From Bacillota bacterium (lineage in GTDB: Bacteria > Bacillota > Clostridia > Christensenellales > CAG-138): DNA of 64,000 bases. Position 1 is the stretch's first letter. Every line of letters starts with the position of its first letter. Below the pieces are notes generated by a model that worked only from the letters and a program-made list of their open reading frames with translations, was not told the DNA's origin and made no database searches. The stretch lies in contig JAEYSE010000020.1 of NCBI GenBank assembly GCA_023435025.1, positions 16,189 to 80,188 of the forward strand, given 5' to 3'. Position numbers and translations under genes: made by a program. This document shows, one piece after another, positions 6,429-26,587 of this stretch.

Positions 6429-7469
6429 CTACAGGCGACAGGTTACTACCACTGCGTCGTGGTCGGAAAGTTCCTGGCCGTCGTATATGGAAAGCTCCTT
6501 CGGCTGTCCGGATAGTTCCGTGTGCTTGAATACTGTCTCCACCCGCAGGGGGTTGGAGCAGGTAAGCCCTTTCTGGAAGAACCAGTCCAAATTCAGGCGG
6601 ACGGTGGAGCCGTCGGGCATAGGCTTTCTTCTTGTGGTTTTGTTCATCAGGTTACAATCCGTATACGAATACCCGAATTCTTCCGCGCAGCGCATCAAAG
6701 GCTCCAGCGTCGGGATAATCGCCAAGCGGCGGTCTTGCTCCTCCTCGTTGTGGTAGAACACATTCATGCTGCCCAACGTATCCCCGTTTACGGTATTGGT
6801 GTTCATATCGCCGCCTACCAGTATTGGGATATTGCCGAAATGCTCGTCGGCGCATTCCAAAAGGTAGCGAAGTTGCCGCTCGCGTTCTTCCGGCGTTGCC
6901 CGGTTCTCAAGATGCACGCAAACGAGGCCTATGCGCCTCCCTGCAGCTTCTATTTCCGCCAATATCGCAACCCGCGTCCCCAGGCGGCAGTCATTTTCGC
7001 GGTAAAACCAATCGTACATAATGGGAAGATGCACAAGCTTTGCGTTATGCAAGGGGTATTTTGATAATATGGCATTGCCGTGCCAGCCCAGCGTGTTGCC
7101 GCCCTGGCCCGCCTTGGCGGTAATAAATTCAATGCCGTAGGCATAATTCATGCCGAGCGCTTCCGCGATATCCCGCGTGACATGCTTGTTGTTTGAGCGC
7201 GCCATGCCGTAATCAAGCTCGTTGGCAAGTATGATGTCCGCGTTGCAAAGGTCTGGATGCAGCTGCAAGTAGGGCATGATTTTTTCGGGGCGCGTGCCGC
7301 ATTCCATGTTAAATACCGTTGCGATAAAGGAGGGATCTTCCTTTTTTGCATACGAATTGTTCACTTCAACGCTGAACAATTCCGGTATCCCGGAGATTGC
7401 CTTTAGATGCGGCATCTGGCTCATATTGCTGATTGCGTCCTGTATTCTTTTTAAGTAGTTCTCGGACAT
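6429..7469 (-). CDS. Endonuclease/exonuclease/phosphatase (EEP) family protein, cytoplasmic
   Basis: EEP-type motifs ANELD, GGDMNTN, LDWFF, SDHDAVVV at the C-terminus. No signal peptide. RBS GGGAGGAAAGAC before the ATG. Confidence 0.75.
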   Translation of the reverse strand: MSENYLKRIQDAISNMSQMPHLKAISGIPELFSVEVNNSYAKKEDPSFIATVFNMECGTRPEKIMPYLQLHPDLCNADIILANELDYGMARSNNKHVTRDIAEALGMNYAYGIEFITAKAGQGGNTLGWHGNAILSKYPLHNAKLVHLPIMYDWFYRENDCRLGTRVAILAEIEAAGRRIGLVCVHLENRATPEERERQLRYLLECADEHFGNIPILVGGDMNTNTVNGDTLGSMNVFYHNEEEQDRRLAIIPTLEPLMRCAEEFGYSYTDCNLMNKTTRRKPMPDGSTVRLNLDWFFQKGLTCSNPLRVETVFKHTELSGQPKELSIYDGQELSDHDAVVVTCRL

Positions 7470-7494
7470 GTCTTTCCTCCCAGTGACAAAATAA

Positions 7495-8418
7495 TTATTC
7501 GATCACAAAACGAACCCTGGAATGATACTGAGCCTCTAACCCCAATATGGAAACCGCATCTGTAAACTGAATGCAACCGGCATATTGCTGTAACAACGCG
7601 ATCGCCTCGGCGGACGGGCGGTTGTCCCCCCGGTCATTGGAAACAGAGACTACGGCGTGTTCGGGTCGAAGCTTTTTGAGAAGCTCTTCGGTCAGGGCAC
7701 CCCCGCAGGCGTGATGCGGAACTTTCAGGATATAGCAGGGGTCGTTTTGCTCATAATCCCAAAATTCACTGTAAACGTCTGCAGGCAGCACGATATCCCG
7801 TCCATGATAGGAAAGGCGCAGACGAATACCTGTGATGTTGGTGAACCGCCCCACAAAATCCAGTTCAAAGCGGTCCGGCCTTCCCAACAGGGCGTCATCC
7901 AGCACGCGCCTCTGGCGGGCATAGAGATACTGCTGCTGGCAGGAGATGTCGGTAAAAAGCCCGGGCGTCAGGCAATACCCTTTCCGGCTTTCGTGTACCT
8001 CCTTGAGCCTGCACCCGCACGCCTGAAGCGGTTGCACCGCATCGAGCAGCATGTTGAGCGTATGACATACGCTCTTCGCAGTCTTGGAGTAATCATCCCC
8101 CGGCTTCAGGCGAACGGAGCGCAAGTCGGGGGTCGGCAGGTAAGGCGTCCAAAGCTCATCGATTTCGGCCTGATTGAAAAGCTTCTCCATGCCGCCGATG
8201 TGATCGCGGTGCAGATGCGTCAATACCAGCAGATCGATATGCGAAACGCCTTCTTCGCGCAGATACGTGGCTGCATCGATCCGCCTGGAGTTTGGCTGAA
8301 CGCTGCCGGGCGTAGTATCCCCGCAGTCCACCAGCATACAGAAATGAGAGGAATCCTCTTGCTCCCGGATGAGTATGGCGTCCCCATACCCAATGTTGAT
8401 AAAATCGATCGTCAGCAT
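7495..8418 (-). CDS. MBL-fold metallo-hydrolase, ComEC C-terminal-domain-like (stand-alone)
   Basis: NIGYGDAILI, HxHxDH motif THLHRDHIGG, later KVPHHACGG. No signal peptide or TM segment. Paralog of 43639..44589. Confidence 0.8.
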   Translation of the reverse strand: MLTIDFINIGYGDAILIREQEDSSHFCMLVDCGDTTPGSVQPNSRRIDAATYLREEGVSHIDLLVLTHLHRDHIGGMEKLFNQAEIDELWTPYLPTPDLRSVRLKPGDDYSKTAKSVCHTLNMLLDAVQPLQACGCRLKEVHESRKGYCLTPGLFTDISCQQQYLYARQRRVLDDALLGRPDRFELDFVGRFTNITGIRLRLSYHGRDIVLPADVYSEFWDYEQNDPCYILKVPHHACGGALTEELLKKLRPEHAVVSVSNDRGDNRPSAEAIALLQQYAGCIQFTDAVSILGLEAQYHSRVRFVIE

Positions 8419-8448
8419 AAGTTCCTTTGTATTGCTTGAAATCCGGTA

Positions 8449-9261
8449 CTATCCGGCTTGGTCCGTATAGGTACCGCGGCAGAACATCCGGGGCGCAAGC
8501 AGCAGCGTTTCCCGCTCTGCGCCTTGGCACAGGCGTTCCATCAAAGACACTGCATGGGTCTCAAGCGCAAAGCGGCCGCATCCCACGCTGGTCAGCTTGT
8601 ATTTGGACAACGATGCGAGCGAAACATCCCCGAACCCAAGAAGCGCGATGTCCCTGCCCGGCCGCAATTCCCGCTCCACAATCGCCTGCCATGCGCCAAA
8701 GGCGGTAAAATCATCCTGGGCGGCAATCACCGTGGGCATGCCTCCATCCAGAAGGCTGCGTGTCGCGCAGTAGCTATCCTGCAGTGAGTTTCCCGCAACC
8801 GCAACCGTATGGACGGCGCTGCAGGGGATGCCGCTTTTTTGCGCCCCCAGCAAAAAGCCTTTGAGAAGTTCATCATGGCAGGATGTGGGGTGAAACAGGA
8901 ACACAAGTTTTCTGTGCCCGTTTTTCATCAGGCGTTCCGCGGCCAAAGTGCCTGCTTTTTTCTCATCCATAGAAACAAAACTTATGGATGCGTGCGAGGC
9001 GTTTTGGCCAACAAATACGACGGGAACGCGCAATCCTTCATACAATGCCTTGCTTTGCGCCTGTACCGGCATGGCGAAGATGCCTGAGACATTCGCCGCA
9101 ATCAGCCCGTTTAGGAACCGGGCCTCATTTTTAAAATCCCCCTGCGCGTTACAAATCAGCAGGCAGTCCCCCCGCCTCTCCAGTTCACGCGCAATGTTTT
9201 CAGCGGTTTCCGGATAAAACGGGTTGATGTCGTCCGGAATGATCATGCCATATTGCTTCAT
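8449..9261 (-). CDS. LacI/PBP1-type sugar-binding (effector) domain protein lacking the N-terminal HTH
   Basis: The product begins MKQYGMIIPDDINPFYPE, which is the first strand of the LacI effector domain. The start ATG overlaps the HAD stop (ATGA), and the DNA upstream is HAD coding sequence, leaving no room for an HTH. Confidence 0.7.
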   Translation of the reverse strand: MKQYGMIIPDDINPFYPETAENIARELERRGDCLLICNAQGDFKNEARFLNGLIAANVSGIFAMPVQAQSKALYEGLRVPVVFVGQNASHASISFVSMDEKKAGTLAAERLMKNGHRKLVFLFHPTSCHDELLKGFLLGAQKSGIPCSAVHTVAVAGNSLQDSYCATRSLLDGGMPTVIAAQDDFTAFGAWQAIVERELRPGRDIALLGFGDVSLASLSKYKLTSVGCGRFALETHAVSLMERLCQGAERETLLLAPRMFCRGTYTDQAG

Positions 9262-10022
9262 GCCGTCTTGTTTTCCGCCTCGCGCAGCATTTTCAATATG
9301 GGATATACGTCGTAAATCTCGTTGAGCCTGTAGTCCGGCTGAACGCCGTCCGTACGGGCGTCCCGGTCCGCGGTAAGGAACGAGTCGATTTGCAGCGTAA
9401 GGCCAAACCCGGCGTTTTTGGCGCCTATGACGTCCCGGGATATGGTATCCCCGACATAGGCGCAGTTCTCGGCTTTTGCGCGCATCTGATGAAGCGCTAT
9501 CAAGAATATATTGGAGTTGGGCTTGCGGTAGCCAACTACGCTCGAAAGCGTGACGTCCTCAAAATAAGAGCGAATTCCGTATTCCTCCAGCGTCTCGAAC
9601 ACCTGAAACATGCTGGCGGTGTTGCTGATAACGCCCATCCGCATTCCCATTTCCCGCAGGCCTTCGAGCATTTCCTTTACGCCCGGGCGCATTTTGCGCG
9701 TATAATATGTGATTTCCCACATATAGGCCAGTTCCTCGGAAATGGAAGCCAGTTTCTTCTTATCCACAGGTAAAAAGGGCAAAGCGTATTCCGGCCAGAT
9801 CTGATCGGGTTTTAACTCGACACATGTTTGTTCGCCTAGGATTTTATACCGCTTCATGCCGGCAGATACTTCCGCCCAAAGCGCCGCATCGTCCATAGAC
9901 AGGCAGATGTCATACTTTTGAAGGATACGGCGTATCCCCTTTGCGGTTTCCGCCATCGTTTTTTCGTCGCTGTAGATTTCCTCGAGCGTACCGCCCATGT
10001 CGAACAAGACAGTATCGATCAT
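9258..10022 (-). CDS. HAD-superfamily hydrolase (subfamily IA-like), motif I DxGxT
   Basis: Motif I LFDMGGTL, motif II VISNT, motif III RKPN, motif IV VGDTISRDVIGAKNAGFG. RBS AAGGAG. Confidence 0.85.
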   Translation of the reverse strand: MIDTVLFDMGGTLEEIYSDEKTMAETAKGIRRILQKYDICLSMDDAALWAEVSAGMKRYKILGEQTCVELKPDQIWPEYALPFLPVDKKKLASISEELAYMWEITYYTRKMRPGVKEMLEGLREMGMRMGVISNTASMFQVFETLEEYGIRSYFEDVTLSSVVGYRKPNSNIFLIALHQMRAKAENCAYVGDTISRDVIGAKNAGFGLTLQIDSFLTADRDARTDGVQPDYRLNEIYDVYPILKMLREAENKTA

Positions 10023-10063: not shown

Positions 10064-10546
10064 TCAATGCTTCTTTTTGTACTTTACGTACAGAAGCGTG
10101 GATACTGCGCCGCCAATCACAAGAGGCGGCAGCACAACCATGGAAAAGAGGCCTAAGAAAGTGGGCATTTCATTTTGCGTAAGGCTTACTGCAATCCCTA
10201 TGCCTCCCACAAGTGCGTAAAACAGCAAGAAGAGATAGGCGCCGGGTACGAGCCTTTTCTCCTTGACCACAAAATGTAACGAACAGCACAGCGCGGTTCC
10301 CGCGATTGCGGGAAGAACGCTTTCAAGGAACGTGGTGAATTTCGTCCCGATACGCGGCAGGAAGAACGCGTCGATCGGGTCAATGAGCATCAGGTACGAA
10401 AGCAGGTATATTGCAACGAACAGAATGCTCAGCGAGAAGGAGTAAATAAGCAGCGTGCTTTTTACCCTGCCGTTTTCGGTAAACAGAAATATGCTCCAGA
10501 ACTTATCGGCCTTTGTCTGTTTCCGGACTGCCTTTGCCTGATCCAT
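10064..10546 (-). CDS. Small polytopic membrane protein, unknown function (paralog of 1433..1876)
   Basis: About four hydrophobic segments. Occupies the same position (immediately after the binding-protein gene) as its paralog. Start at 10546 is preceded by AAAGGAAG. Confidence 0.6.
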   Translation of the reverse strand: MDQAKAVRKQTKADKFWSIFLFTENGRVKSTLLIYSFSLSILFVAIYLLSYLMLIDPIDAFFLPRIGTKFTTFLESVLPAIAGTALCCSLHFVVKEKRLVPGAYLFLLFYALVGGIGIAVSLTQNEMPTFLGLFSMVVLPPLVIGGAVSTLLYVKYKKKH

Positions 10547-10623
10547 GGATTTCAATCTTCCTTTTGAATGCGGGCGGGCAGTGCCCGCCCGCATCCGGTT
10601 TTTTTAGTTCTATGGTTGCGCTC

Positions 10624-11928
10624 TTACATATTGGGGTTCTGGTCGAGCCAATAGACCCAGAAGTCCTGAACGTCGAGGAATATGTCATACACGCCCTTCA
10701 TGTTGCCCGGTATGGCGCCGCTTTCCTTCACGGAGAACGGATTATTGGGGTTGACATAATCGTCGCGGATGGACCAGTTGCCCTGTTTGGTGAACGGCTC
10801 AAAGCCAATGCCCTGGCCGTCCGCTTCGCCCATCAGGAACCGGATGAAAAGGCGCGCGCCCGCGGGGTTGTCGCAGCCGGTTACCACATACAGGTAATTG
10901 CAGTTCTGCACGTTGGGATAGGGCAGAAGCTTCGTTACCCAATCAATGGTATAGCCGTTTTCCTCGCGGTTGGTGATCTTACCCGCAGAGCAGAAGCCCA
11001 GCCTGGGCTTACTCGGGTCGGTCGCGGCGTTGACGGCTTCCACGATTTCATCACCGTCGCCTATGAACGTCAGTTTCAGCTGCGAGAGCCTGTACAGGAA
11101 TTCATAGCCCGCGTTCTTTTCAGGGACGTTCGCGGTCTTCGTGCTGTCATAGGTATACTCTATGGGCTTGCCGTACTTGGCTTCATATGCCTGCGCCAGC
11201 TGATCGGCGTTGAGTATCATGCTGGAGTAGAATGTCAGGTAGGTGGGGTCGGCAGACAGGTTTTCGCATACGATATCATATTTCTGGTTGCCATTTGCGT
11301 CCAGTTCAATGATATCCCACCAGTTGGAGACCGGTGCGCCGTTGGGGAATGCCGTGGTGTTGTAATACCAGAAGTTCATGCTCGCATAGAACGGCATGCC
11401 GTAACCCAGCAGGCTGGGATCGATGTGCGAGACGATATCGCTGGGATAATACGTTTCAAGATAACCAAACGGGAAAAAGTCGTAGTAGATTTCGCCGTTG
11501 CCGTCCTTGCACTGCAGGACGTCCGCATTGATATTACCGGATTTCGCTTCAATCTCAATCTTGCTTACCGCTTCCCCCTGGTCCAGGTCGATGGCTTCGG
11601 CGGTCAGCCCCGGGTATGCTTCCATGAACGTATCACAGGTTTTCTGCATGCGGCTGGAAATGGTATAGACGGTTACCTTGCCGCCCTCCTTTTTTGCCTG
11701 CTCATAGAGCTCTGCCGATGTCATGTTGTTCCATTTGTCATCGGTAACCACATTGGAGTCAGTCGCCTCGGGCGCGGCGGTAGCTTCGGCGGCAGGGGCT
11801 GCTGGGGCTGCGGGCGCTGCGGGTTCCGGAGTAGGATTGCTGCTGGCGGGAGCTGTAGGCGTACATCCTACCAATGCCAATGTGCAAACCATTAATACAA
11901 CCAGGGTAAGCGTGAGCAGTTTCTTCAT
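10624..11928 (-). CDS. ABC importer substrate-binding lipoprotein, FbpA/AfuA-like class (cassette 2)
   Basis: MKKLLTLTLVVLMVCTLALVGC lipobox, PAAPAAPAAPAA linker, KVTVYTISS... fold. Start trimmed to 11928 (RBS GAAAGGAG). Confidence 0.8.
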   Translation of the reverse strand: MKKLLTLTLVVLMVCTLALVGCTPTAPASSNPTPEPAAPAAPAAPAAEATAAPEATDSNVVTDDKWNNMTSAELYEQAKKEGGKVTVYTISSRMQKTCDTFMEAYPGLTAEAIDLDQGEAVSKIEIEAKSGNINADVLQCKDGNGEIYYDFFPFGYLETYYPSDIVSHIDPSLLGYGMPFYASMNFWYYNTTAFPNGAPVSNWWDIIELDANGNQKYDIVCENLSADPTYLTFYSSMILNADQLAQAYEAKYGKPIEYTYDSTKTANVPEKNAGYEFLYRLSQLKLTFIGDGDEIVEAVNAATDPSKPRLGFCSAGKITNREENGYTIDWVTKLLPYPNVQNCNYLYVVTGCDNPAGARLFIRFLMGEADGQGIGFEPFTKQGNWSIRDDYVNPNNPFSVKESGAIPGNMKGVYDIFLDVQDFWVYWLDQNPNM

Positions 11929-11962
11929 GGCTGTTCTCCTTTCAGTTATATAAACCCTGCGG

Positions 11963-13081
11963 TTATACCGCAAGCTTGATAAGCTTCCCGCATGCCTTGT
12001 CATAAACATTGAGCTTTCCGGGATCTATAACCAAGCGCACCTTTTCGTTGATTTGGTAGTCCATGATGCCGATCTGCTTGGAAAGGAATTCGGCGTTGCC
12101 TACGGTCAACGTAACCAGCGTTTCGGAGCCTGCGGGCTGGCTGGCGTAGATGCTTGCCTCTATCCCGTCGCCGGTGCCGCCCCGCTCAATACGTACCTGC
12201 TCGGGGCGCAGGCCGAACACGCAGGGGAACTCTCCGGAAGGCAGGGGCACATCCGACATGTCCTTTTTGCAGTAGCGGAACGTGCCAATCGCGCAGGCGG
12301 CGGTCAGATGATCGCCGTCGTAGGACGCGGTCCCCTGAAGGAAATTGATGCGGGGGTTGCCGATGAAGTCTGCCGCCATCAGGGTGCCGGGGTTCATATA
12401 CAGATCCAGCGGCGTTGCGACCTGGGCCAGTACACCCTCGGAATACAGCGCGATCTTGGTGGACATCGTAAGCGCCTCCACCTGGTCGTGCGTGACATAT
12501 ATGATGGTGGTACCCATTTCGTTGTGCAGACGCTTCAATTCGGAACGCATGTCGATGCGCAGCTTGGCGTCCAGGTTAGATAGCGGTTCGTCCAATAGCA
12601 GCAGCTTCGGCTCGGAAGCGATGGCGCGGGCGATCGCCACGCGCTGCTGCTGGCCGCCGGAAAGCTCGTTGGGGTACCGCTTTTCGAATTCGCCGATCCG
12701 CATCATTTCCAGCGCTCTTTTGACCATCTTGTCAATTTGGCTGGCGGACATTTTTTTAATCTTCAGGCCGAACGCCACGTTCTCGTATACCGTCATATGC
12801 GGCCAAAGGGCATAGCTTTGGAACACAAGGTTGAGCTCGCGTTTGCTCGGCTCCTCAAAATAGGCGAGGTCGCAGTTGATAACCTCCCGCCCGTCCATGC
12901 GCATAATGCCGTTCTGCGGCTTTTCAAGCCCCGAAACCACGCGCAGCGTGGTCGTCTTTCCGCAGCCTGACGGCCCCAATAGCGTCATGAAGTCTCCGTC
13001 TTCGATCGTCAGGGACAAATCCTTTAATACATGGTTGTCGCCGAAATACTTGTCAATATGCTCCAGTTCGATTCTACTCAT
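11963..13081 (-). CDS. ABC importer ATP-binding protein, cassette 2
   Basis: Walker A GPSGCGKTT, LSGGQQQR, LLLDEPLSNLD. High identity to 3351..4478 along the full length. Confidence 0.92.
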   Translation of the reverse strand: MSRIELEHIDKYFGDNHVLKDLSLTIEDGDFMTLLGPSGCGKTTTLRVVSGLEKPQNGIMRMDGREVINCDLAYFEEPSKRELNLVFQSYALWPHMTVYENVAFGLKIKKMSASQIDKMVKRALEMMRIGEFEKRYPNELSGGQQQRVAIARAIASEPKLLLLDEPLSNLDAKLRIDMRSELKRLHNEMGTTIIYVTHDQVEALTMSTKIALYSEGVLAQVATPLDLYMNPGTLMAADFIGNPRINFLQGTASYDGDHLTAACAIGTFRYCKKDMSDVPLPSGEFPCVFGLRPEQVRIERGGTGDGIEASIYASQPAGSETLVTLTVGNAEFLSKQIGIMDYQINEKVRLVIDPGKLNVYDKACGKLIKLAV

Positions 13082-13126
13082 TGCGTATTTTCCTCTCTTT
13101 CCGCATTCACAAACGGCTTAAACTAA

Positions 13127-14953
13127 TCAACCCCAGCTCTTGCCGATATCGGCGCCGCCGAATTTATTGGCAACCCAGTAAGATACCAGCACGAATAAAA
13201 GCACACATACCGAGATCGCGTCAGCCATCTGGGGGAGCGCCTCGCGCGAATATTGGAATGCGAGATACGATAGCGTACGGTTCTCCGGTGTGATCAAAAG
13301 TATAATAAGATCCAGTTCTTTCGCGATGCTGATGAATACAAGCATAAAACCCGAAAGGAAGCCCTGTTTCGCAAGCGGTATGATGATCCGCCCCATTCTT
13401 CGCCAGAAGCTCGCGCCTGCGATATCTGCGGCTTCCTCCAGCTCCACCCCGATCTGCATCATATTCGCGGTCCCCGCACGGCTTGCGAATGGGAAGTGCT
13501 TGACCACGCTTGCCAGCACGAGCAGCGTGAATGTGCCGTACAGGGATGGAATAATGCCGTGCGGCATGCTCCACATGGCGAGGTAGATCGCCGCAAACGC
13601 GATGGCTGGCATCAGGTACGGGATAAACACGAGCTGCTCGGTGAGCTTCCCATACCATTTCCCACGGCCGCGAGAGCTGATATATCCCAGGAACTGCCCG
13701 CAAAACGCCGTGATAATCGATGAGATAAGTGTGAGTTTGATCGTGTTCCACAGGCCCCTTGAGAATTCCTGATTTTTGAATATGCCCGGATAATGGCTGG
13801 TGGTGCTGGAAAAATCAGCGTCGCCAATCCAGTTGTATAGCGTCAGGTTGTCTAGCCCGTAACCTGCGCCCGTGCTTTTCTGGAACGTTTCCATGACCAG
13901 TATGAACATGGGCATGAACATGGCGATGACCAGAAACAGGGCCAGGAATATCATGATATACGGCTTGGCCTTGCCCAGCGGGATGAGAGCGTGCTTGGTG
14001 CCCTTGCCGCCGAGCGTTTCATAGGACTTTCGTGTGCCCACCAGCCGCTGGTTCGCGAATATGGTGCCCGATGCCAGAACGATTAAAAGCAGCGCCATTG
14101 CGTAGCCAAGCCCTGCCTGCCTACCGTTGATGCAGTCGTGCATTTTGGTGGCCAGCGTGAAGTAGCCGATGCGCAAGCCCAGGTTGGCGGCCACGCCGAA
14201 GGAACCCACGGATTTTGAAAGCGTCATGATGGTTGCGGATAGCACCGCGGGGGCGACTAGAGGCAGCGTAATGCTTTTTAATATCTGCAGCTTGCTTGCA
14301 CCCTGTATTTCGCCCATTTCTTCAAGTTCGCTGTTGACGGAGCGGAGAGAGCTTGAAACCATAATGTAAGAGAAGGCGTAATAGTGCAGCACCATGACCA
14401 GTATGATCGCCACCGGACCATACGCCAGCCAGTCCGGTATGGTCAGCCCCAGGCCCTCTAAAAAGCCGGGCGAGCCGCTTCTTGCGTTGCGGAATACCGC
14501 AAGCCAGGACATCGCTTTGCACCAGGACGGTATCATGTAGGGAACAATGATGCCGATGGAAAGAAATTTCTTCCCCGGTAAATCGCTGCGCACCATTACC
14601 CAGGCAAGTATCGAGCCTAGTGGTACGGAAATGAGCGCCGTAAAAAAGCCTATAATCAGGGAGTTGATCAGCGGCTTCCAGAGCGTAGCTGAGGAAAGGT
14701 TGCTCGCGAAAAGCTGCTTCCAATAATAGAGCGTGAAGTCCCCAACCTTGCCGTCCACACGCCTTAATTCACTCGCTGCGAGCGTGAATGTGGTCCGGAG
14801 CATCTCGATAAGTGGGATAACGATCAGCACAATTAACAGCACAAGGGAAATCAGCACAATCATGTTGAACGGATTCTTAACGACCTGCAGGACCTTGTTT
14901 TTGATCTTCACTGTGGACCAGGGCTTCTTGGCCTGTTTACCGCTCACGTTCAC
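13127..14953 (-). CDS. Fused two-domain ABC importer permease, cassette 2
   Basis: 608 aa, collinear with 4485..6323. Many shared blocks, e.g. SIGIIVPYMIPSWCKAMSWLAVFRNA vs SLAIIVPYMLPSWCKSMAWMAVFKNA. GTG start (14953 or 14947). Confidence 0.88.
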   Translation of the reverse strand: MNVSGKQAKKPWSTVKIKNKVLQVVKNPFNMIVLISLVLLIVLIVIPLIEMLRTTFTLAASELRRVDGKVGDFTLYYWKQLFASNLSSATLWKPLINSLIIGFFTALISVPLGSILAWVMVRSDLPGKKFLSIGIIVPYMIPSWCKAMSWLAVFRNARSGSPGFLEGLGLTIPDWLAYGPVAIILVMVLHYYAFSYIMVSSSLRSVNSELEEMGEIQGASKLQILKSITLPLVAPAVLSATIMTLSKSVGSFGVAANLGLRIGYFTLATKMHDCINGRQAGLGYAMALLLIVLASGTIFANQRLVGTRKSYETLGGKGTKHALIPLGKAKPYIMIFLALFLVIAMFMPMFILVMETFQKSTGAGYGLDNLTLYNWIGDADFSSTTSHYPGIFKNQEFSRGLWNTIKLTLISSIITAFCGQFLGYISSRGRGKWYGKLTEQLVFIPYLMPAIAFAAIYLAMWSMPHGIIPSLYGTFTLLVLASVVKHFPFASRAGTANMMQIGVELEEAADIAGASFWRRMGRIIIPLAKQGFLSGFMLVFISIAKELDLIILLITPENRTLSYLAFQYSREALPQMADAISVCVLLFVLVSYWVANKFGGADIGKSWG

Positions 14954-15000
14954 ACCTCTTTCTTTCTGGGTAGAAATTTGCCTGTATGGCGGCCTTCGTT

Positions 15001-15783
15001 TTAGTGGCTTTCATTACGATGGCTTTCATTATAGGACCGGATAATGCCGATAACCTCCGGCAGCGCTTTTATGGTATAGTCCGGCTGGTAGCCGCACCCT
15101 TCAAGCTTGCGTTCACGTTCCAGCACATGCGGCTTTGCTTCGCTGAACAATATGCGTATCATCAGGCCCCATCCCGCGTTCTTTACGCCGATGACGTCCC
15201 GTGAAATGGTATCTCCCACATAGGCCATTTCCTCGGCCTTCAAACCCATGGAATTCCTGCAAAGATCGAATATTCGCCTGTCCGGCTTTCTCAGTCCGCA
15301 TACGCTGGATAGGAGTATATACTCAAAGTAGCCGGAAACGCCGTATTCCTGCAGGAAATGAGGCGCATACGTCCTCGAAAGCGTGTTGCTGAGTATGGCC
15401 AAGCGCATGCCCTGCTCTCGTAGACCCTGCAGGCACTCGTGCAGGCCCTCTCGCGGAGCGTCTTGCGCGTGGTTACACCAAAGAAAGCTTAAGTCCTCTG
15501 AAATGGGGAACAGCTGCTCTGTTGTCGCGCCATAATCCTTTAAAAAGAAGTTACGCCATGCCTCAAGCGGGGGGATTTCCTCTACCAGTTGTTCGGAAGC
15601 ACGCTTGCGGGCATGGTCGGCTTCCGAGAGTTTTAAGGCGAAAGTCTCGACTGGGTCGGGTATGCGAACTCCTCGGAGCTCAAGAAGATTTTTGATCTTT
15701 CTCGCACAGAGAAGGTGTCGTTTCGGGTCTTCTGTCAATGTGTGAATGACGCCGCCCATATCAAATACAACTGCCTGAATCAA
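15001..15783 (-). CDS. HAD-superfamily hydrolase, motif I DxGxV; first gene of the long operon
   Basis: VVFDMGGVIHTL, ILSNT, RKPD, VGDTISRDVIGVKNAGWG. Preferred start is the TTG at 15783 (RBS AAGGCGGG, 8-nt spacer). The track ORF extends to a TTG at 15855 that has no RBS. Confidence 0.8.
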   Translation of the reverse strand: MIQAVVFDMGGVIHTLTEDPKRHLLCARKIKNLLELRGVRIPDPVETFALKLSEADHARKRASEQLVEEIPPLEAWRNFFLKDYGATTEQLFPISEDLSFLWCNHAQDAPREGLHECLQGLREQGMRLAILSNTLSRTYAPHFLQEYGVSGYFEYILLSSVCGLRKPDRRIFDLCRNSMGLKAEEMAYVGDTISRDVIGVKNAGWGLMIRILFSEAKPHVLERERKLEGCGYQPDYTIKALPEVIGIIRSYNESHRNESH

Positions 15784-15884
15784 AGAGTTCACCCGCCTTG
15801 CGGTTTGGTTTAAAGGTAGGACTGGAATGGAATAGCGGTCTGAATTATGTGACAATTAGAATGACAGTGGATTGGAATGGTTTA

Positions 15885-19898: not shown

Positions 19899-20789
19899 TC
19901 AGCCTTGATAAAATTCGTCGATATAAGCTTTCACCTGTTCGCGCGTACCCAGGAACGGCCCGGGCGTTTCCATCTTGAGCGATACCAAGGCCGAGGCCCA
20001 CAGCAGCGCCTCCGGAATATCCGCATACAGGCGTTCCGTGATATATCCGGAAAAGCAGGTATCCCCCCGGCCCGTGCGGCCAATCAGACTGCGCGGCTTC
20101 AACGGACAGGTATAGACTTTTTTTCCATCGTATACGAGCACTTCGGTGTTATGGGTAATCATGACCTCCTGCGCGCCCCATGCGTAGAGCTGCTTGGCGG
20201 CCTGTTCCCGGTCGGTCATGCCGGTCATTATTTCCGCCTCCGCGGCGTCCATCTTTAAAAAGCGGATCATGGGGAGGTAGGTAAGCTTCTCTTCCCAATC
20301 ATGGAACACCATGGTGCCATTTTCCTCGCACCTTAGCAGACATTGTACATCCACGGCAGCCATAGCCTTTTTTGCTGCGTAGGCGATGATTTCATTTCCT
20401 AAATCCCCCCGCATCAGACCGGCAATGTGATAGATGCTCGCGTCCACTTCTGGGATCTCGTTTACCGCGTACGGCTCTATGCGGCTGAGCATGGTGCAGG
20501 TACGCCTTTCACGGTCAGCGGTGTGGTAGACGTTTTGAATGGAGGTGCTGTGCGTGCTGTTAAGCGGGAAAACAGTGACGTTCTTTGCCCCTGAAAACAG
20601 GTTGTCTAAGTCCATATCAGCCTTGCTCGCCTTGGGTAGCGCTGCAACCGTTCGCCCCATGCCCGACGCCGCAAAGCCGGAGAATACAACCGCCCCGCCG
20701 ATCGCGCGAAGGGTTACGCCGTCATAATCCGTGTTGACGTCCAAACTGGGCTGGCCCAGAATGAATGTGTCGAATTTCTTTTTCCCCAT
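19899..20789 (-). CDS. PfkB-family carbohydrate/small-molecule kinase
   Basis: N-terminal ILGQPSLDV and the C-terminal anion-hole region GRTGRGDTCFSGY typical of the ribokinase/PfkB fold. Abuts the PHP gene with no gap. Confidence 0.75.
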   Translation of the reverse strand: MGKKKFDTFILGQPSLDVNTDYDGVTLRAIGGAVVFSGFAASGMGRTVAALPKASKADMDLDNLFSGAKNVTVFPLNSTHSTSIQNVYHTADRERRTCTMLSRIEPYAVNEIPEVDASIYHIAGLMRGDLGNEIIAYAAKKAMAAVDVQCLLRCEENGTMVFHDWEEKLTYLPMIRFLKMDAAEAEIMTGMTDREQAAKQLYAWGAQEVMITHNTEVLVYDGKKVYTCPLKPRSLIGRTGRGDTCFSGYITERLYADIPEALLWASALVSLKMETPGPFLGTREQVKAYIDEFYQG

Positions 20790-21518
20790 CTAATTCCTAC
20801 CTCCAAAATAGGCGTTGCACTTTGCAATCAAATGCTGAAATTCGTCGCTATGCACGCGGTATGCTCTTTGTTGCACCGCGCGCTTATAATCGAAGGAGTC
20901 AGAAAGCCGCGCGTCAAACACCATTGCCGCGCGCCCTTCATCACCCGGACGGTGCGTATCGGAGCTGCAGGTCCTAAGCAGATGAGGGTTTTCCATGCAA
21001 AGCGCGAGCGCCTGATCATTGCCGTTTTCATGGCGGGGGCTGCAGTTGATGTATTCAATCCCGTGTACGCAATCATAATGGATAAGGCCGTGCTGCTTCC
21101 GGAACGGGTGCGCGTGTATGATCAAAACCTCGTTTTTGAACGTTTGATAAAAGTCATGCGGGTCCATGCGATACGGGTAGGGGTTGCGTTTGAGAAACGC
21201 CTCGTCTATGCCGTACACCAGGTAATCGTTGTTGCTGTCCTGTTCAAAACGCAATTCAGCTCCCAGAAGCACGTCAAACCCCAATTCGGCCCCTCTTTGC
21301 TTCGCGGTTTTGTAACCAAGGAGGAACCGGTCCACGCACGCGTCCCAATCATCGTTGCAGTCTAGCGAGGAAATGTAAGTTTCGTGCAGGTGGTCCGTCA
21401 CAATAAATCCGGCGTAGCCCTTCTCATGGTACGTTTCCACCAGTGTTTTTGCGGCTATCCTTCCGCAGTGGCTGGTTTCCAGGGTATGGACGTGCGGGTC
21501 GTACAAGTATTCTTTCAT
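20790..21518 (-). CDS. PHP-domain phosphoesterase (histidinol-phosphatase-like fold)
   Basis: N-terminal DPHVHTLETSHC metal motif, TDH, IHAHP, SSDTHRPGDEG. Confidence 0.7.
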   Translation of the reverse strand: MKEYLYDPHVHTLETSHCGRIAAKTLVETYHEKGYAGFIVTDHLHETYISSLDCNDDWDACVDRFLLGYKTAKQRGAELGFDVLLGAELRFEQDSNNDYLVYGIDEAFLKRNPYPYRMDPHDFYQTFKNEVLIIHAHPFRKQHGLIHYDCVHGIEYINCSPRHENGNDQALALCMENPHLLRTCSSDTHRPGDEGRAAMVFDARLSDSFDYKRAVQQRAYRVHSDEFQHLIAKCNAYFGGRN

Positions 21519-21537: not shown

Positions 21538-22545
21538 TTATACCAACGAAATACAGGATTTACGCTTGATCAGCGTGGGCAACAGGATCTGATGCGAGTA
21601 ACCGAGCGACGGATTGCGGAGCTTTTCCAGCATCATATCCACCGCGATCGCCGCCATTGTCATTTTGGGCTGCTCGATCGTGGTAAGGTTGATTTTGGGA
21701 AGGCCCGTAAAATGGATATTGTCGAACCCGAGCAGTGAGAGATCCTCGGGTATCCGTACGCCGCATTCGTCGGCTGCCTGAAGCACCCCCAAAGCGTTGG
21801 AGTCCGTGGACGCGAATATGGCGGTATAGTCAAAGCGGCTTGCAAACAGCTGCTTGGCCAGGGCGTAGCCGTTCTGTATGGAGCTTGCCATGTACGGGCT
21901 GTTGAAAAAGCACGGCGTAATCTTATAATCGCGGCATGCGTCGCTGTATCCGTCCGAGCGCAGCTGGTGGGTGTTGCTGCCTTTGCGGTATCCAAAGTAC
22001 AGGATGTTCCTGTGCCCCAGGGAATACAGGTATTCCGTGCCGATATACGTACCCCGGTAATTATCTACGGCCACATAGCTTTCCGGCGCGTCCCGCAGGT
22101 TTTCGCTGACAAACACGGTGGGCACCTTGTTCAGATACTTTTTCAGGCGGCCATACGTATCGATGCTGGAGGGGACGATGATAATGCCGTCTACCTGCCT
22201 GCCCATCAGCAGCTCAAACACCTGCTCCTCCTGAGCTAAGTCGTTAGAGGAGTTACACAGCATGATGTTGTAACCGCGTGCCCGCGCGTTCAGCTCAATA
22301 TGGTACGCGATCTCGGACATAAACGGATTTTCTATGCTGGTTACGATTAGCCCGATGAGCTTTGTGCGTTTCATCACCATGGAACGGGCCACGAAATTGG
22401 TGGTATAGCCCATTTCCTTGCAAATCTTCACAATGCGCTCGCGAGTTTCGGTGCTGATCTCGGGGCTGTTGGACAGCGCGCGCGAAACGGTGGCATAGGA
22501 CACATTCGCAACCTTGGCAATGTCCTTAATTGTGACGTTTTTCAT
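21538..22545 (-). CDS. LacI-family transcriptional regulator (full length, with HTH)
   Basis: MKNVTIKDIAKVANVSYATVSRALSNSP HTH followed by a PBP1 effector domain (IGLIVTSIENPF...). Confidence 0.9.
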   Translation of the reverse strand: MKNVTIKDIAKVANVSYATVSRALSNSPEISTETRERIVKICKEMGYTTNFVARSMVMKRTKLIGLIVTSIENPFMSEIAYHIELNARARGYNIMLCNSSNDLAQEEQVFELLMGRQVDGIIIVPSSIDTYGRLKKYLNKVPTVFVSENLRDAPESYVAVDNYRGTYIGTEYLYSLGHRNILYFGYRKGSNTHQLRSDGYSDACRDYKITPCFFNSPYMASSIQNGYALAKQLFASRFDYTAIFASTDSNALGVLQAADECGVRIPEDLSLLGFDNIHFTGLPKINLTTIEQPKMTMAAIAVDMMLEKLRNPSLGYSHQILLPTLIKRKSCISLV

Positions 22546-22564: not shown

Positions 22565-22578
22565 TGCAAACGTTTTCG
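22565..22578. promoter_or_regulatory. LacI-family operator-like site TGCAAACGTTTTCG (autoregulatory position)
   Basis: Imperfect palindrome (10 of 14 positions symmetric) located 8 nt downstream of the -10 and just upstream of the lacI RBS. Confidence 0.55.
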
Positions 22579-22586
22579 TTATACAA

Positions 22587-22616
22587 ATCATACTACATCT
22601 CTATATAGGATGTCAA
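22587..22616 (-). promoter_or_regulatory. Sigma-A-type promoter of the lacI-PHP-pfkB operon
   Basis: On the minus strand: TTGACA (22616-22611), 18-nt spacer, TATGAT (22592-22587). Confidence 0.6.
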
Positions 22617-22723: not shown

Positions 22724-24289
22724 TTAGATATATTGCGTTCCTCCACCCCGTACAAGCGCCGCATATACCTTTTCGATTTTCGCGTAATTTCCGTCCCGAT
22801 CCAAGGCCAGTCCGCGTCCCACGCCGTCCACAATCTGCCCCGTACCGATTTTGGTGATTTGCGTTTCAAGCTCTTCAAGCAGTTTGGGCGCGCTGCCCGG
22901 CTCGGTGCTGCGTCCATCAAATATGATATGCACATATACCTTGGGCAGGTCCTTGGCCATTTGCAGCAGCGCAAGCGGATAGTCTATGGAGCCGTGGGAG
23001 GATTTTTTGGTCAGCAGGGCGAGTAAATGCAAAGCGGCCCCATTTTTTCTGACACGATCGATTGCGTTTAGGAACACCTCGTTTTGCAAAAAGGAGCCGT
23101 CCTTCATGGCTTGGTCCAGCCGGATATCATCCTGCTGCACGATCCTGCCTGCCCCGATGTTGGAGTGACCCGCCTCCGAATTGCCGGGCTTGCCTTCCTG
23201 CAAACCTACCGCCTCGCCTGAAGCGCGCAGCCGGGAGGGCGTATAGTCGGCGTTGAGCCGATCCCATACGGGGGTCTCCGCCAAATAGATGGGGTTGGTG
23301 TTGTCTTGCTTTCCAATACCCCACCCATCCAGAATAATGAGCAGCAGCTTACGGTCTTTGCCAAAATCATGCCCGGCAGCAAGGCTTACGCCCGTCATGC
23401 CTGCGGGCTGCGGAATGCGGAGTACTTGCAATGCTGTAGGCGCGACGTCTGAAAGGTTCCCGTTCGAAAGCGCGATGGGAGCGTCCGAATCCGGGTCGAT
23501 CAAAAAAAAGGAAACGAGGTTCGACGTATGCGCCACATGCGGCTTGCCTTCGGGTGTGCACATTTCCTCCAGGTTGCCGTGGTCGGCGGTAATGGCGGTT
23601 ACATAGCCATGCCGCTTAGCCGCTTCTAGCACACGCCCCAGGTGGTAATCCACATGCGCGGCGCACTCTATTTTCGCCTTTTCATTGGAGGTATGCCCGA
23701 TCACGTCCCCGTTCGCGAAATTGACCACGATCCATTCGCGCCCATCCTCCAACCCTTTTATAACCGTATCGGCCACCTCGGGCAGGCGCAACGCTGGGAC
23801 TTGGTAAAAAGGAATGCCCTTGGGCGAGGGGATGCAGACGTCGTCTTCGCCGGGGAACGGCACATTGTTCCCGCCGTTTAAAAAGAACGTCACATGGGCG
23901 TATTTTTCGGACTCCGCGCAGTGCAACTGCCTAAGCCCCGACTTACTTACCGTTTCCGCCAACGTATCCTTCCCGCGTGTCGGTGCGAAAGCGATGGGCA
24001 GATCCTTGTACTTTTCGTGGTACATGGTCAGTATGACAAATGAAAGGTCCGAATAGCGTTCCCGTTCAAAATGCGGAAACTCCGCGGCTGTGAACGCGTC
24101 CGTCAGCTCAATCTCCCGTTCGCCGCGGCGGCAGCAGAATATGACCGCGTCGCCGTCGCGGACGCGACCGATTGCGTTGCCTTCTTCATCCACGCGAACC
24201 AGCGGCTCCATGGAATAATCGGCCTGGCCACGGGCATAGGCGTCCCTGACTGCATTCGCTAAGGCTACTCCGCCGTATTCCCCATGCAT
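22724..24289 (-). CDS. Circularly permuted cofactor-independent phosphoglycerate-mutase-like enzyme (alkaline phosphatase superfamily)
   Basis: All iPGM motifs are present but in the order C-terminal half then N-terminal half: ESEKYAHVTFFLNGG, NGDVIGHT, TADHGN, VAHTSN, IPQPAGMTG, linker, IILDGWG, GNSEAGHSNIGAGRIV, FDGRS, LDRDGNYAKIEKVY. Start set at the ATG at 24289 (RBS AAGGAGG, 7-nt spacer). Confidence 0.85.
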   Translation of the reverse strand: MHGEYGGVALANAVRDAYARGQADYSMEPLVRVDEEGNAIGRVRDGDAVIFCCRRGEREIELTDAFTAAEFPHFERERYSDLSFVILTMYHEKYKDLPIAFAPTRGKDTLAETVSKSGLRQLHCAESEKYAHVTFFLNGGNNVPFPGEDDVCIPSPKGIPFYQVPALRLPEVADTVIKGLEDGREWIVVNFANGDVIGHTSNEKAKIECAAHVDYHLGRVLEAAKRHGYVTAITADHGNLEEMCTPEGKPHVAHTSNLVSFFLIDPDSDAPIALSNGNLSDVAPTALQVLRIPQPAGMTGVSLAAGHDFGKDRKLLLIILDGWGIGKQDNTNPIYLAETPVWDRLNADYTPSRLRASGEAVGLQEGKPGNSEAGHSNIGAGRIVQQDDIRLDQAMKDGSFLQNEVFLNAIDRVRKNGAALHLLALLTKKSSHGSIDYPLALLQMAKDLPKVYVHIIFDGRSTEPGSAPKLLEELETQITKIGTGQIVDGVGRGLALDRDGNYAKIEKVYAALVRGGGTQYI

Positions 24290-24308: not shown

Positions 24309-25067
24309 TTATTTCTTTGCGGTGCCTGCCTCAAGGCAGACACTCGGTGCCTTCGGGAATATATCCAGCAGTTGCCGGATGTCGCTTATGATGATGTCAG
24401 GCCTGTTCTCGTCGGTGATGATTTCTCTGGAGGGGTTATCGGGGTAATCGATACCTACATTCAGCCCGAATCCAGCGGATTTTGCGCCAATGATATCGCG
24501 GGCGTAATTGTCCCCCACGCAAGCGCAAAGCGCTGGCGGTACGTTTGCCTCTTCCACCGCCTGCAAATAGATTGCGGGGTCCGGCTTGCGAATGCATGTC
24601 ACGGAGGACAGCACCACGGTCTTGAAATAATGCTCCAGCCCATCTTCCTTGAGCCAATCCTGGATTTCATGGCAGCCGATGAGGTTGCTGATAATTCCCA
24701 GCGTGTAGCCCCGTTTGTACAGCGTGTCTATGACCTCCACGCCGCCATCAATAACGTACCGCTTGCCTTTGGCCTGGCGGTACTGGTACGTAAGCTCCGG
24801 GGCGTTCGCGGCAATGCGCTCCGCCGGGTATTCGGGGGCCAGCCAGCGAGTCCAGAGCTCGGCTTCCGGCGCTTCACGATTGGTATCAATCGCCCAGTCA
24901 CGGTATTTGTCATAGCGCTGGTCGATCAACTTGTGGAACTGCTTTGGGTCCATATCTGTGCCGACCAGCTCCGCGATTTTAGACATTGCGTTATACTGAT
25001 GCTCCGGCTCCTTGCGCAGGATGCGAAGCGTGCCGCCAAGATCAAAGAATATACCCTGAATATCCAT
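24309..25067 (-). CDS. HAD-superfamily hydrolase, motif I DxGxT (tandem paralog 3 of 3)
   Basis: IFFDLGGTL, IISNL, RKPD, VGDNYARDIIGAKSAGFG. RBS GGGAGGAG. Confidence 0.85.
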   Translation of the reverse strand: MDIQGIFFDLGGTLRILRKEPEHQYNAMSKIAELVGTDMDPKQFHKLIDQRYDKYRDWAIDTNREAPEAELWTRWLAPEYPAERIAANAPELTYQYRQAKGKRYVIDGGVEVIDTLYKRGYTLGIISNLIGCHEIQDWLKEDGLEHYFKTVVLSSVTCIRKPDPAIYLQAVEEANVPPALCACVGDNYARDIIGAKSAGFGLNVGIDYPDNPSREIITDENRPDIIISDIRQLLDIFPKAPSVCLEAGTAKK

Positions 25068-25088: not shown

Positions 25089-25835
25089 CTATATTGCCGC
25101 TTCTAAATTGCGCGGCGGGAACATAGTCAGCAGTTCGGCAAGATCGTATAGTACGGCGTCCGGCTCGCACCCTTCGGGCGCGGGCTTTAAAGTCTTCCCG
25201 GGTTCCACAAACAACAGGAAAGCGCCAAAGCCTGCGGCTTTTGTGCCTGCGACATCGCGCTTGACGTTATCCCCCACGTATACACAGCGTTCGGGCGATA
25301 TTCCCACCTCCCGCGCGGCCATACGGTGCATCTCCGGGTCGGGTTTGCGGATGCCGCATACCGCTGAAAGCAGAACGGACTTGAAATATGGGGTCAGTCC
25401 GTCCGCCTCCAGCCAATCCGGAATCTCCTTTGAGGTGATCAAGTTGCTGATAATGCCCAAGGTATATCCCCTCAGGTGCAGTTCGCGGATGACCTCCGCG
25501 CCATGCTCGGCAACCACCCGCCGCCCCTTGGCATTGCGGTAGTGGATTGTTAGCTCCACGGCGGCGGCAGCAACGCTGTCCTTCGGAAATTCCGGCGCAA
25601 GCCACCGCGTCCAAAGTTCAGACTCGGGCGCTTCCTTCATTTCTTCAAACGCCCATTTGCGGTAATCCAGATACCGTTCATCCAGAAGGGCGCAGAACGC
25701 CTTGGGTTCCGCATCGGTGTTTAGCAGCCGTGTGATGTTCCGTAGGGCGTCGTTTTGGAACGCCTCGTCCTCCACTAAAAGGCGAAGCGTGCCGCCGAGG
25801 TCAAAAAATATCGCATCGAAGTTTTCCGTATTCAT
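25089..25835 (-). CDS. HAD-superfamily hydrolase, motif I DxGxT (tandem paralog 2 of 3)
   Basis: IFFDLGGTL, IISNL, RKPD, VGDNVKRDVAGTKAAGFG. ATGA overlap with the upstream paralog. Confidence 0.85.
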   Translation of the reverse strand: MNTENFDAIFFDLGGTLRLLVEDEAFQNDALRNITRLLNTDAEPKAFCALLDERYLDYRKWAFEEMKEAPESELWTRWLAPEFPKDSVAAAAVELTIHYRNAKGRRVVAEHGAEVIRELHLRGYTLGIISNLITSKEIPDWLEADGLTPYFKSVLLSAVCGIRKPDPEMHRMAAREVGISPERCVYVGDNVKRDVAGTKAAGFGAFLLFVEPGKTLKPAPEGCEPDAVLYDLAELLTMFPPRNLEAAI

Positions 25836-26587
25836 GCATTATCTCCCTGCGTCGCCTTTATGCGGGAAGGAAACAGGCCAAGAAGCTCCGAAATTTCGTC
25901 TATTGTATGGTCCAGCGGAAAGTCCGCCGACTGCGGCTCGTTTTTGAGCGTAGCCGGTTCGTTGATGAGTATCATTTTCGCAAAGCCGGACGCGCGCGTA
26001 CCCTCCGTATCGCGTATGGGATTGTCTCCCACATAGGCACACTGAGCGGGTATGGAGCCGATCGTACGGGCGGCAAGCAGGTAGATCTCAGGATCTGGCT
26101 TGCGGAGCCTGACCTTTGAGGAGAGTATCACGGTGCGGAAGCAGCTTGCCACGCCGTCCGCAATCATCCAGTCCGGTATTTCGGTTTCCGTGATGGTATT
26201 TGCAATAATGCCCAGCTTGTAACCGCGCCGGACCAGTTCTTGTAGCGTCGCCTTGACGTCGTGCCTTGGAATGCGTCTGCCGTCATGGTCACGCCAAAGC
26301 CGCGTAAGCCGCCCGGCATTTGCCGTAATCAGCTCGGCAGGATAATCCGGAAGCAGCCAGAACGTCCAAAGCTCCATTTCCGAAGCTTCCAGCATACTGC
26401 GCTTGCTTTGCTTGCGGTATGCGTCCCATCTGCTTTCCAGCTTGCTGAAAAAAGCGTCGTGGGGCTCCGTTGCTCCTACGAGCCGCATCAGCTCGTGTTC
26501 CGCCGCAGCCTGAAACGGCGCGTCCTTTACAACGATTCTCAGGGTGTTGCCAACATCAAAGAATATGGTGTCGATCTCCGGCTTCAT
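25832..26587 (-). CDS. HAD-superfamily hydrolase, motif I DxGxT (tandem paralog 1 of 3)
   Basis: IFFDVGNTL, IIANT, RKPD, VGDNPIRDTEGTRASGFA. RBS CAGGAGGG. Confidence 0.85.
   Translation of the reverse strand: MKPEIDTIFFDVGNTLRIVVKDAPFQAAAEHELMRLVGATEPHDAFFSKLESRWDAYRKQSKRSMLEASEMELWTFWLLPDYPAELITANAGRLTRLWRDHDGRRIPRHDVKATLQELVRRGYKLGIIANTITETEIPDWMIADGVASCFRTVILSSKVRLRKPDPEIYLLAARTIGSIPAQCAYVGDNPIRDTEGTRASGFAKMILINEPATLKNEPQSADFPLDHTIDEISELLGLFPSRIKATQGDNA

Follow-up and report, generated by a model that had tools for sequence, protein, structure and literature searches.

A circularly permuted relative of cofactor-independent phosphoglycerate mutase, encoded beside HAD-family genes in a clostridial genome

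A stretch of 64,000 nucleotides from a Bacillota bacterium of the Clostridia (contig JAEYSE010000020.1, assembly GCA_023435025.1), referred to here as the window, contains an open reading frame whose product carries the motifs of a cofactor-independent phosphoglycerate mutase (iPGM) in an unusual order. This raises the question of whether the chain order is genuine, and, if so, on what substrate such an enzyme would act. In the original prediction, made from the sequence alone, the reading frame at 22724-24289 was taken to encode a functional, circularly permuted iPGM with a substrate other than 3-phosphoglycerate. The reading frame was found at this position, on the minus strand, which had not been specified, and all twelve of the quoted peptide motifs were located in the product where they had been placed. 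The results described below indicate that the gene almost certainly encodes a real and functional permuted enzyme of the iPGM family, and they lean, if only slightly, towards a working phosphomutase with a non-glycolytic substrate.

Both domains of iPGM were detected by Pfam (Metalloenzyme, PF01676, E 4.6e-56; iPGM_N, PF06415, E 2.8e-44). The NCBIfam profile TIGR01307 aligned residues 11-303 to profile positions 214-503 of 504, and its score (460.1, cutoff 330.65) is a sum over two out-of-order stretches; the score against NF003897 was below the cutoff (361.4 vs 862). A phmmer comparison with the Geobacillus stearothermophilus enzyme GpmI (PDB 1ejj) also gave two matches, corresponding to segments A and B in table 1, with E values of 7.9e-60 and 1.9e-44, respectively. 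Smith-Waterman alignment to a single copy of GpmI covered only residues 14-303 (score 529). Alignment to a tandemly duplicated GpmI, a check proposed together with the original prediction, yielded one continuous match (score 921) in which residues 14-520 correspond to GpmI 220-511 followed by 1-213, with 208 of 498 positions identical (~42%); 100 shuffled queries scored 38 +/- 4.6. The profile match, the two-stretch GpmI matches and the tandem alignment thus agree on a permuted rather than a collinear order, as had been proposed.

In segment A, the later part of the transferase domain (up to residue ~100) precedes the later part of the phosphatase domain, and in segment B the earlier part of the phosphatase domain precedes the earlier part of the transferase domain. 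Between them lies the linker, with the sequence SLAAGHDFGKDRK at nucleotides 23348-23386. Judged by its sequence, the gene is a true circular permutant of iPGM. The phosphatase domain would now form a contiguous insert within the transferase domain, with both predicted hinges and the whole active site retained. The new termini do fall inside the transferase domain, as stated earlier, but at about GpmI 213/219, some 15-20 residues before the position of about 233/235 that had been given.

A Shine-Dalgarno sequence (AAGGAGG) is located 7 nucleotides 5' of the ATG at 24289. A longer reading that starts at a GTG was rejected, since it would run into the gene upstream and since M1 is conserved almost without exception in the aligned family. 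The AlphaFold2 model, computed with 52 family members, comprised two domains with a mean pLDDT of 90.9 and a pTM of 0.83, and the linker region reached a pLDDT of 94-97. Foldseek returned 22 significant matches in PDB, all of them iPGMs, with alignments of 251-319 columns each (about half of the length) and a best TM score of ~0.50, which is expected when a sequential aligner meets a circular permutant. Among PDB sequences compared with the family profile, none matched collinearly, and every match came in two stretches.

The architecture is not confined to the window. Species genomes, one per species, were scanned, and at least 593 stretches encoding a relative were detected; in the best 80 loci, which were kept, the match ran collinearly and in one piece over residues ~2-521. 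The carriers include Oscillospiraceae, Oscillibacter, other Clostridia and many Anaerolineae, among them the cultured isolates Butyricicoccus pullicaecorum and Levilinea saccharolytica. Over 98-100% of the query, the top 120 relatives in the databases, at 64-99% identity, were likewise collinear, full-length proteins 99% and 88% identical were found in independent assemblies, and the same architecture occurred in many metagenomes. Given this recurrence in 80 loci, metagenomes and isolates, the gene cannot be a pseudogene, a pair of fragments or the product of a chimeric junction, which agrees with the earlier view of an intact, functional-looking reading frame. The unusual order itself, and the fact that the exact protein was not found in the assembly index, could be cited for a misassembly or for two fragments read as one, but in view of the independent near-identical proteins, the collinearity of all 80 loci, the breakpoint and short linker shared by all permuted clusters (see below), the strong Shine-Dalgarno sequence and the confident model across the linker, an artefact is scarcely credible.

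When 1.84 billion 50%-identity representatives were searched exhaustively, 10,566 matches were obtained, the best 150 of which were classified by the order of their stretches as canonical (125), permuted (20) or fragments (5). Fifteen of the 20 permuted representatives were full-length, at 40-58% identity. The breakpoint is common to the query and at least 15 further 50%-identity clusters, and a linker of 7-11 residues stands at the equivalent place in all permuted clusters. The permuted proteins, re-ordered to the canonical order, were aligned with 115 canonical ones (136 sequences, 502 columns). In the resulting tree 18 of the 21 permuted proteins, including the query, fell into one clade with a bootstrap value of 90/100, so the search for homologs suggested with the prediction did reveal a widely recurring permutation with a main clade. 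As proposed here, this clade is defined by the break at about GpmI 213/219, a linker of 7-11 residues and the signature SSHG, DGRS, [CA]C[RK]RGERE and ESEK.

The three other permuted proteins (P0143, P0144 and P0159) have a matching breakpoint and a linker of 10-11 residues, and were scattered among the canonical iPGMs. Their motifs are fully canonical (GVHS, DGRD, NFRxDRA, ETEK), and they represent a second permuted kind with a canonical pocket and a HAD-free context (L084, 4041-5585; L085, 2341-3885). P0144 is a genuine gene, present on two contigs from different samples and without HAD neighbors. This kind could be an evolutionary intermediate or the outcome of an independent permutation. 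A permuted iPGM module with canonical motifs was also observed, collinear, at residues 3859-4373 of P0270, a predicted protein of 5027 residues in which the flanks of the module resemble long helical or membrane regions. With this module included, the canonical-motif permuted proteins share the breakpoint and have linkers of 9-11 residues, and differ from the main clade in keeping GVHS, DGRD, NFRxDRA and ETEK; they too are undescribed.

No description of a permuted iPGM was found in a literature search, neither Pfam nor NCBIfam has a model dedicated to one, and PDB contains no solved structure of one, in keeping with the earlier remark that such an enzyme had not been described. Searching the literature for the set of genes around it likewise brought up nothing of use. 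The relatives are named in their sources as iPGM, 'alkaline phosphatase family protein' or hypothetical protein. The permuted clade is widespread among bacteria and undescribed.

Equivalents of the GpmI residues D12, S62, H66, H123, R185, R191, R261, R264 and K336 were present in 21/21 permuted proteins, and so were those of D403, H407, D444, H445 and H462. In the query, segment A supplies R55/R58 (R261/R264), preceded by an extra R54, as well as K129 (K336), D195/H199, D236/H237 and H254. Segment B supplies D321 (D12), H375 (H66), H432, R460, R492 and R498, with S461 replacing D154, and the nucleophile S371 (S62), encoded at nucleotides 23177-23179. The nucleophile and the six metal ligands (D321, D195, H199, D236, H237, H254), whose retention had been predicted, are thus present in the query and invariant across the family.

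The pocket is a different matter. Seven of the eight residues in the substrate-contact set (H123, R153, D154, R185, R191, R261, R264, K336) are kept, and D154 is Ser in the query. Position 154 is Asp in 113 of 115 canonical proteins, and Ser (14), Asp (4) or Gly (3) in the 21 permuted ones. The signature of the main clade includes further changes: GVHS to SSHG, in which the change of V122 to Ser discriminates permuted from canonical proteins; ETEK to ESEK, in which the change of T334 to Ser does the same; NFRxDRA to CCRRGERE, which adds an Arg at position 260 (F260 to R); and DGRD to DGRS. The corresponding motifs in the query are KKSSHGS, FDGRS, FCCRRGERE and AESEKYA. With an Asp lost and an Arg gained, the pocket would be about two charges more positive than that of canonical iPGM, suggesting that the main permuted clade has an altered substrate pocket.

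From the full conservation of the catalytic residues we infer that the permuted enzyme would follow the iPGM mechanism. An anionic phosphoester would bind in the Arg/Lys/His pocket of the transferase domain, and domain closure would carry its phosphate to the binuclear metal site, where Ser371 would accept it to form phosphoserine. The dephosphorylated substrate would then re-orient, and the phosphate would be returned to a neighboring hydroxyl. The protein is most likely an Mn-dependent phosphoserine phosphomutase, predicted to act on an anionic phosphoester other than 3-phosphoglycerate.

The genetic context bears on the nature of this substrate. As had been stated, the gene is the last of an operon with three HAD-family genes, in the tightly packed order HAD1-HAD2-HAD3-permuted gene (table 1), and the window from ~1.4 to 26.6 kb is entirely minus-strand. 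The operator-like sequence before the neighboring LacI gene, GAAAACGTTTGC (22566-22577), is nearly identical to the palindrome GCAAACGTTTGC upstream of the HAD operon; the core of the palindrome, AANCGNTT, is generic for LacI/CcpA-type operators and does not identify the regulator that binds it. The permuted gene is apparently under LacI control. A one-mismatch variant of the palindrome was observed at 44676-44687, flanked by another LacI gene (44750-45745) and by an operon encoding an MBL-fold protein and an ABC importer; a second MBL-fold paralogue is at 43639-44589.

Table 1. Positions of the permuted gene, its segments and the surrounding features in the window
Feature	Position	Strand	Remarks
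HAD1	25832..26587	-	first operon gene; motif I FDVGNTL, no Asp+2
HAD2	25089..25835	-	motif I FDLGGTL; start overlaps HAD1 stop by 4 nucleotides
HAD3	24309..25067	-	stop 19 nucleotides before permuted gene; 52% identical to HAD domain of P0051
Promoter-like TTGACA-17-TAGTAT	26776-26748	-	5' of HAD1; consensus match only
Perfect palindrome GCAAACGTTTGC	26693-26704	-	5' of HAD1; consensus match only
Permuted iPGM-family gene	22724..24289	-	521 residues; ATG at 24289, TAA stop; uninterrupted reading frame
Segment A	23378..24253	-	residues 13-304 = GpmI 219-509; 1EJJ match
Linker	23351..23377	-	nine residues, 305-313; old C-terminus to old N-terminus
Segment B	22730..23350	-	residues 314-520 = GpmI 5-213; 1EJJ match
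Promoter-like TTGACA-18-TATGAT with operator-like GAAAACGTTTGC	22566..22616	-	before LacI gene
LacI-family regulator	21538..22545	-	first gene of next unit; homologous LacI in 39/80 loci
PHP-domain phosphoesterase	20790..21518	-	second gene of LacI unit; in 6/80 loci
Ribokinase-family (PfkB) kinase	19899..20789	-	third gene of LacI unit; TM0415 homologue
HAD (FDMGGV)	15001-15855	-	ahead of importer cassette 1
ABC importer cassette 1	10064-14953	-	fused permease (608 residues), ATPase, binding protein (461), membrane protein (176)
HAD (FDMGGT)	9258-10022	-	heads stretch 1433..10022
LacI-type ligand domain	8449-9261	-	270 residues, no helix-turn-helix; start overlaps upstream HAD stop
MBL-fold protein and Exo_endo_phos-family protein	6429-8418	-	between the two importers
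ABC importer cassette 2	1433-6422	-	permease (645 residues), ATPase, binding protein (413), membrane protein (164)

Both importer cassettes include a fused double permease. They are paralogous, with identities of 55% for the permeases, 63% for the ATPases and 34% for the binding proteins, and their small terminal polytopic membrane proteins (164 and 176 residues) had no family match. The stretch 10064..15855 probably belongs to the same system as the permuted gene, and the stretch 1433..10022 possibly to the same locus. The nearest named models of the importer were those of the 'putative 2-aminoethylphosphonate' system PhnS2/T2/U2, all well under cutoff, and the label of phosphonate transporter was rejected for this reason. 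Its binding protein had no relative in PDB, Pfam or NCBIfam that would reveal the ligand. No glycolytic gene or second phosphoglycerate mutase was found in the examined parts of the window, which bears out the earlier statement on the lack of glycolytic neighbors, and scans of the window for tRNAs and Rfam families were negative. Elsewhere in it, an IolG-like inositol 2-dehydrogenase, cut by the left edge of the window, was represented by its C-terminal end at 1-237 on the plus strand, which is 56% identical over 79 residues to an IolG encoded beside the permuted gene in locus L046. The minus-strand region 31342-37500 encodes AcnX (aconitase X), a 786-residue fusion of OYE and pyridine-nucleotide-disulphide oxidoreductase, and a GGGtGRT-family protein (648 bits).

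The neighborhoods of the permuted gene in the 80 loci were compared by crude calling of reading frames and BLAST clustering; antisense shadow frames produced by this calling in GC-rich loci (clusters 3, 19, 22, 24 and 25) were disregarded. HAD paralogues of the same family were the most frequent neighbors (67/80 loci, at position -1 in 42, and usually in 2-3 copies), followed by the ABC importer (43, with a fused ABC permease in 40) and a LacI regulator (39). A PRK/uridine-kinase-like protein of ~400 residues, whose N-terminal extension of ~190 residues is unassigned to a family, was encoded in 36 loci, an ApgM-type iPGM scoring above the NF003160 cutoff (560 vs 468) in the same operon in 33, and RpiR in 31. 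Less frequent were UxaE (21), an IolM-like dehydrogenase (17), a KdgK-like kinase and Gnd (14 each), a LarA-like epimerase (12), the TM0415-like PfkB kinase (11), IolG (10), PHP (6) and, adjacent to the gene in Clostridia, a membrane H+-pyrophosphatase (8). Markers of inositol pathways were present in 37 of the loci, and either these markers or the importer in 57. A typical locus in Anaerolineae has Gnd, a LarA-like protein, SDR, UxaE and LacI in divergent orientation, followed by two HADs, the permuted gene, ApgM, two PRK-like genes, RpiR, the importer and a further HAD. A natural fusion of a HAD and the permuted enzyme (P0051, 786 residues) was found on 8 contigs in an Anaerolineae-type operon.

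More divergent members have other neighbors. The gene for P0132 (49% identity, locus L086) has no HADs beside it; it is followed by genes for a permease and an ATPase, then for a binding protein with 45% identity to the 461-residue one of the window and for a small membrane protein with 39% identity to its counterpart in the window. L086 contains two permuted paralogues (7001-8548 and 14522-15548), two glycerophosphodiester phosphodiesterase (GDPD) genes, LysR and this importer cassette. P0135 is encoded by the last gene of a LysR-controlled importer operon, also without HADs. Adjacent HADs without Asp+2 are thus a trait of the close subfamily that the divergent P0132 and P0135 do not share. 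For P0133, P0136, P0138 and P0139 the contigs are too short to be informative on neighbors.

The HADs encoded beside permuted genes have the nucleophilic Asp in 117 of 118 cases, with the motif III Lys and the motif IV Asp conserved. The general acid/base at Asp+2 is replaced by Gly in 109 of the 118, giving a motif I of the form D-x-G-[N/G]-T-L-R, and all five HAD paralogues of the window are without it (D-x-G-[G/N]-[T/V]). HADs that lack Asp+2 can be phosphatases, especially on good leaving groups, as exemplified by the glucose-1-phosphatase YihX of E. coli (DLGNV). A PhnX-type phosphonatase was considered for these proteins and rejected, as it was not among the NCBIfam matches reported.

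The PfkB kinase of the window matched TM0415 of Thermotoga maritima over its full length (E 1.7e-38; PDB 1vk4, 5ysp). TM0415 is a PPi (pyrophosphate)-dependent kinase of the ribokinase family that phosphorylates the 1-OH of myo-inositol, and its gene belongs to the operon for inositol catabolism TM0411-0416; with a Km as high as 12 mM for inositol, the enzyme may have another compound of the pathway as its true acceptor (PMC5931981). Kinases of this type are marked by the motif RXGRGD, and 'homolog No. 49', from Levilinea saccharolytica, was active (PMC5931981). The window kinase has RTGRGD and conserves D11, N78, Q141, R145, K171, R229, R232 and D234, and would by published criteria (PMC5931981) be of the PPi-dependent TM0415 type; the motif R[TS]GRGD was found in all 12 members of its PfkB cluster. 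L. saccharolytica also has a permuted gene (L016), which is not adjacent to the kinase gene there. Beside permuted genes, one of the TM0415-like and PRK-like kinases was present in 46 loci and both in only 1, a near mutual exclusion that suggests a shared step.

Several known systems are similar in part. Canonical iPGM (GpmI/GpmM; TIGR01307; PDB 1EJJ, 1O98) has the same two Pfam domains, the Ser nucleophile, the two metal sites and the Arg/Lys/His substrate cluster in common with the query at ~42% identity, but its transferase domain is inserted in the phosphatase domain, the reverse of the query, which is cut at about GpmI 213/219. The query differs also in its pocket (SSHG, DGRS, CCRRGERE, ESEK) and in a context that is HAD-linked, LacI-flanked and non-glycolytic. 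The archaeal-type iPGM ApgM (PF10143, NF003160), whose gene adjoins the permuted one in 33/80 loci, is of the same superfamily and shares the catalytic core, but has an unrelated cap domain and weak similarity to the query (E 1.5e-06), and is not permuted in this way. The phosphopentomutase DeoB and the wider alkaline phosphatase superfamily share the binuclear metal site and a Ser/Thr nucleophile, with a weak match in the core, but have other substrates and no iPGM_N transferase domain. The TM0411-TM0416 cluster of T. maritima is comparable in that a TM0415 homologue is encoded near the permuted gene, with UxaE, IolG and IolM-like proteins at related loci. To our knowledge, the Thermotoga inositol cluster contains no iPGM-like gene or HAD array.

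Taken together, the changed pocket, the HADs, the importer, LacI and the PPi-dependent inositol-type kinase led us to think that the substrate is not glycolytic 3-phosphoglycerate/2-phosphoglycerate. It is more likely a more anionic phosphoester from a pathway for the use of inositol or organophosphates; candidates include inositol phosphates, phospho-(keto)hexonates and bisphosphates. The earlier suggestion of a substrate other than 3-phosphoglycerate is in this way made more probable by the pocket signature, by the linkage and fusion to HADs, and by the inositol/organophosphate-type neighbors. There are points that weigh against this interpretation. The conservation of seven of the eight substrate contacts and the TIGR01307 score above cutoff are compatible with plain 3-phosphoglycerate/2-phosphoglycerate activity, and the list of contacts, the roles of D154 and the Arg cluster, and the location of the pocket are those we take to apply from the GpmI structures, as a lead only. 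The tree that defines the clade was built by neighbor-joining only, with 100 bootstraps. Moreover, the neighbors vary between lineages (PfkB/PHP in Clostridia, PRK-like/ApgM/RpiR in Anaerolineae, LysR/GDPD in others), and given this variation a single pathway for all lineages can only be conjectured.

A true mutase of 3-phosphoglycerate and 2-phosphoglycerate that is merely permuted, either a housekeeping enzyme or an isozyme through which a pathway feeds lower glycolysis, is accordingly the most obvious alternative. It would account for the identity to GpmI over the full length, for the conserved catalytic and contact residues and for the name iPGM already given to relatives, and P0143, P0144 and P0159 show that permutation is compatible with a canonical pocket. 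We consider it less likely in view of the invariant clade-specific pocket substitutions, including that of D154 by Ser, the score under the NF003897 cutoff, the apparent LacI control, and the coupling and occasional fusion to HADs. Glycolytic genes were never seen alongside, and where the operon also encodes an ApgM-type iPGM, as in 33/80 loci, a second 3-phosphoglycerate mutase would be redundant. The enzyme might instead have ceased to be a mutase and act as a phosphatase, or as an intermolecular phosphotransferase in a relay with the adjacent HADs. It belongs to the alkaline phosphatase superfamily, one relative is named by NCBI as an 'alkaline phosphatase family protein', and NCBIfam includes ApgM-type proteins that are not mutases (a proposed homoserine kinase and the PhpG transferase). 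The locus is also crowded with phosphoesterases, and most of the HAD partners are without Asp+2, one of them fused to the enzyme. In iPGM, the transferase domain with its Arg cluster holds and re-orients the dephosphorylated substrate; here this domain is complete and the cluster invariant, and no hydrolase-specific feature was found, so that this alternative appears quite unlikely. A phosphomutase with a non-glycolytic substrate is retained as the preferred interpretation.

A more specific proposal is that the protein is a new phosphomutase for inositol phosphates or Thermotoga-type phospho-keto-hexonates, which together with a dedicated PhnS2T2U2-like importer, several position-specific HAD phosphatases without Asp+2 and a TM0415-like (PPi-dependent) or PRK-like kinase would form an undescribed pathway. 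We regard this as improbable. If true, Oscillospiraceae of the gut and Anaerolineae of digesters and sediments could use imported organophosphates, for example by moving the phosphate of Ins(2)P, an end-product of phytate, to a position that other enzymes accept, and the role of the TM0415-type kinases would be accounted for.

The finding adds a natural circular permutation, inverting the topology of a domain insertion, to an enzyme family that is well studied and a drug target. The forms with the same breakpoint and a canonical pocket allow the order of permutation and change of function to be tested. For genome annotation, automatic names such as glycolytic iPGM will mislead metabolic reconstructions of the abundant gut Oscillospiraceae and Anaerolineae. 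The conserved set of genes, in which two types of mutase and a kinase, either PPi-dependent or PRK-like, accompany an importer and unusual HADs, is indicative of an uncharacterized pathway linked to organophosphates or inositol, and provides a handle on the physiological role of the TM0415-type PPi-dependent kinases.

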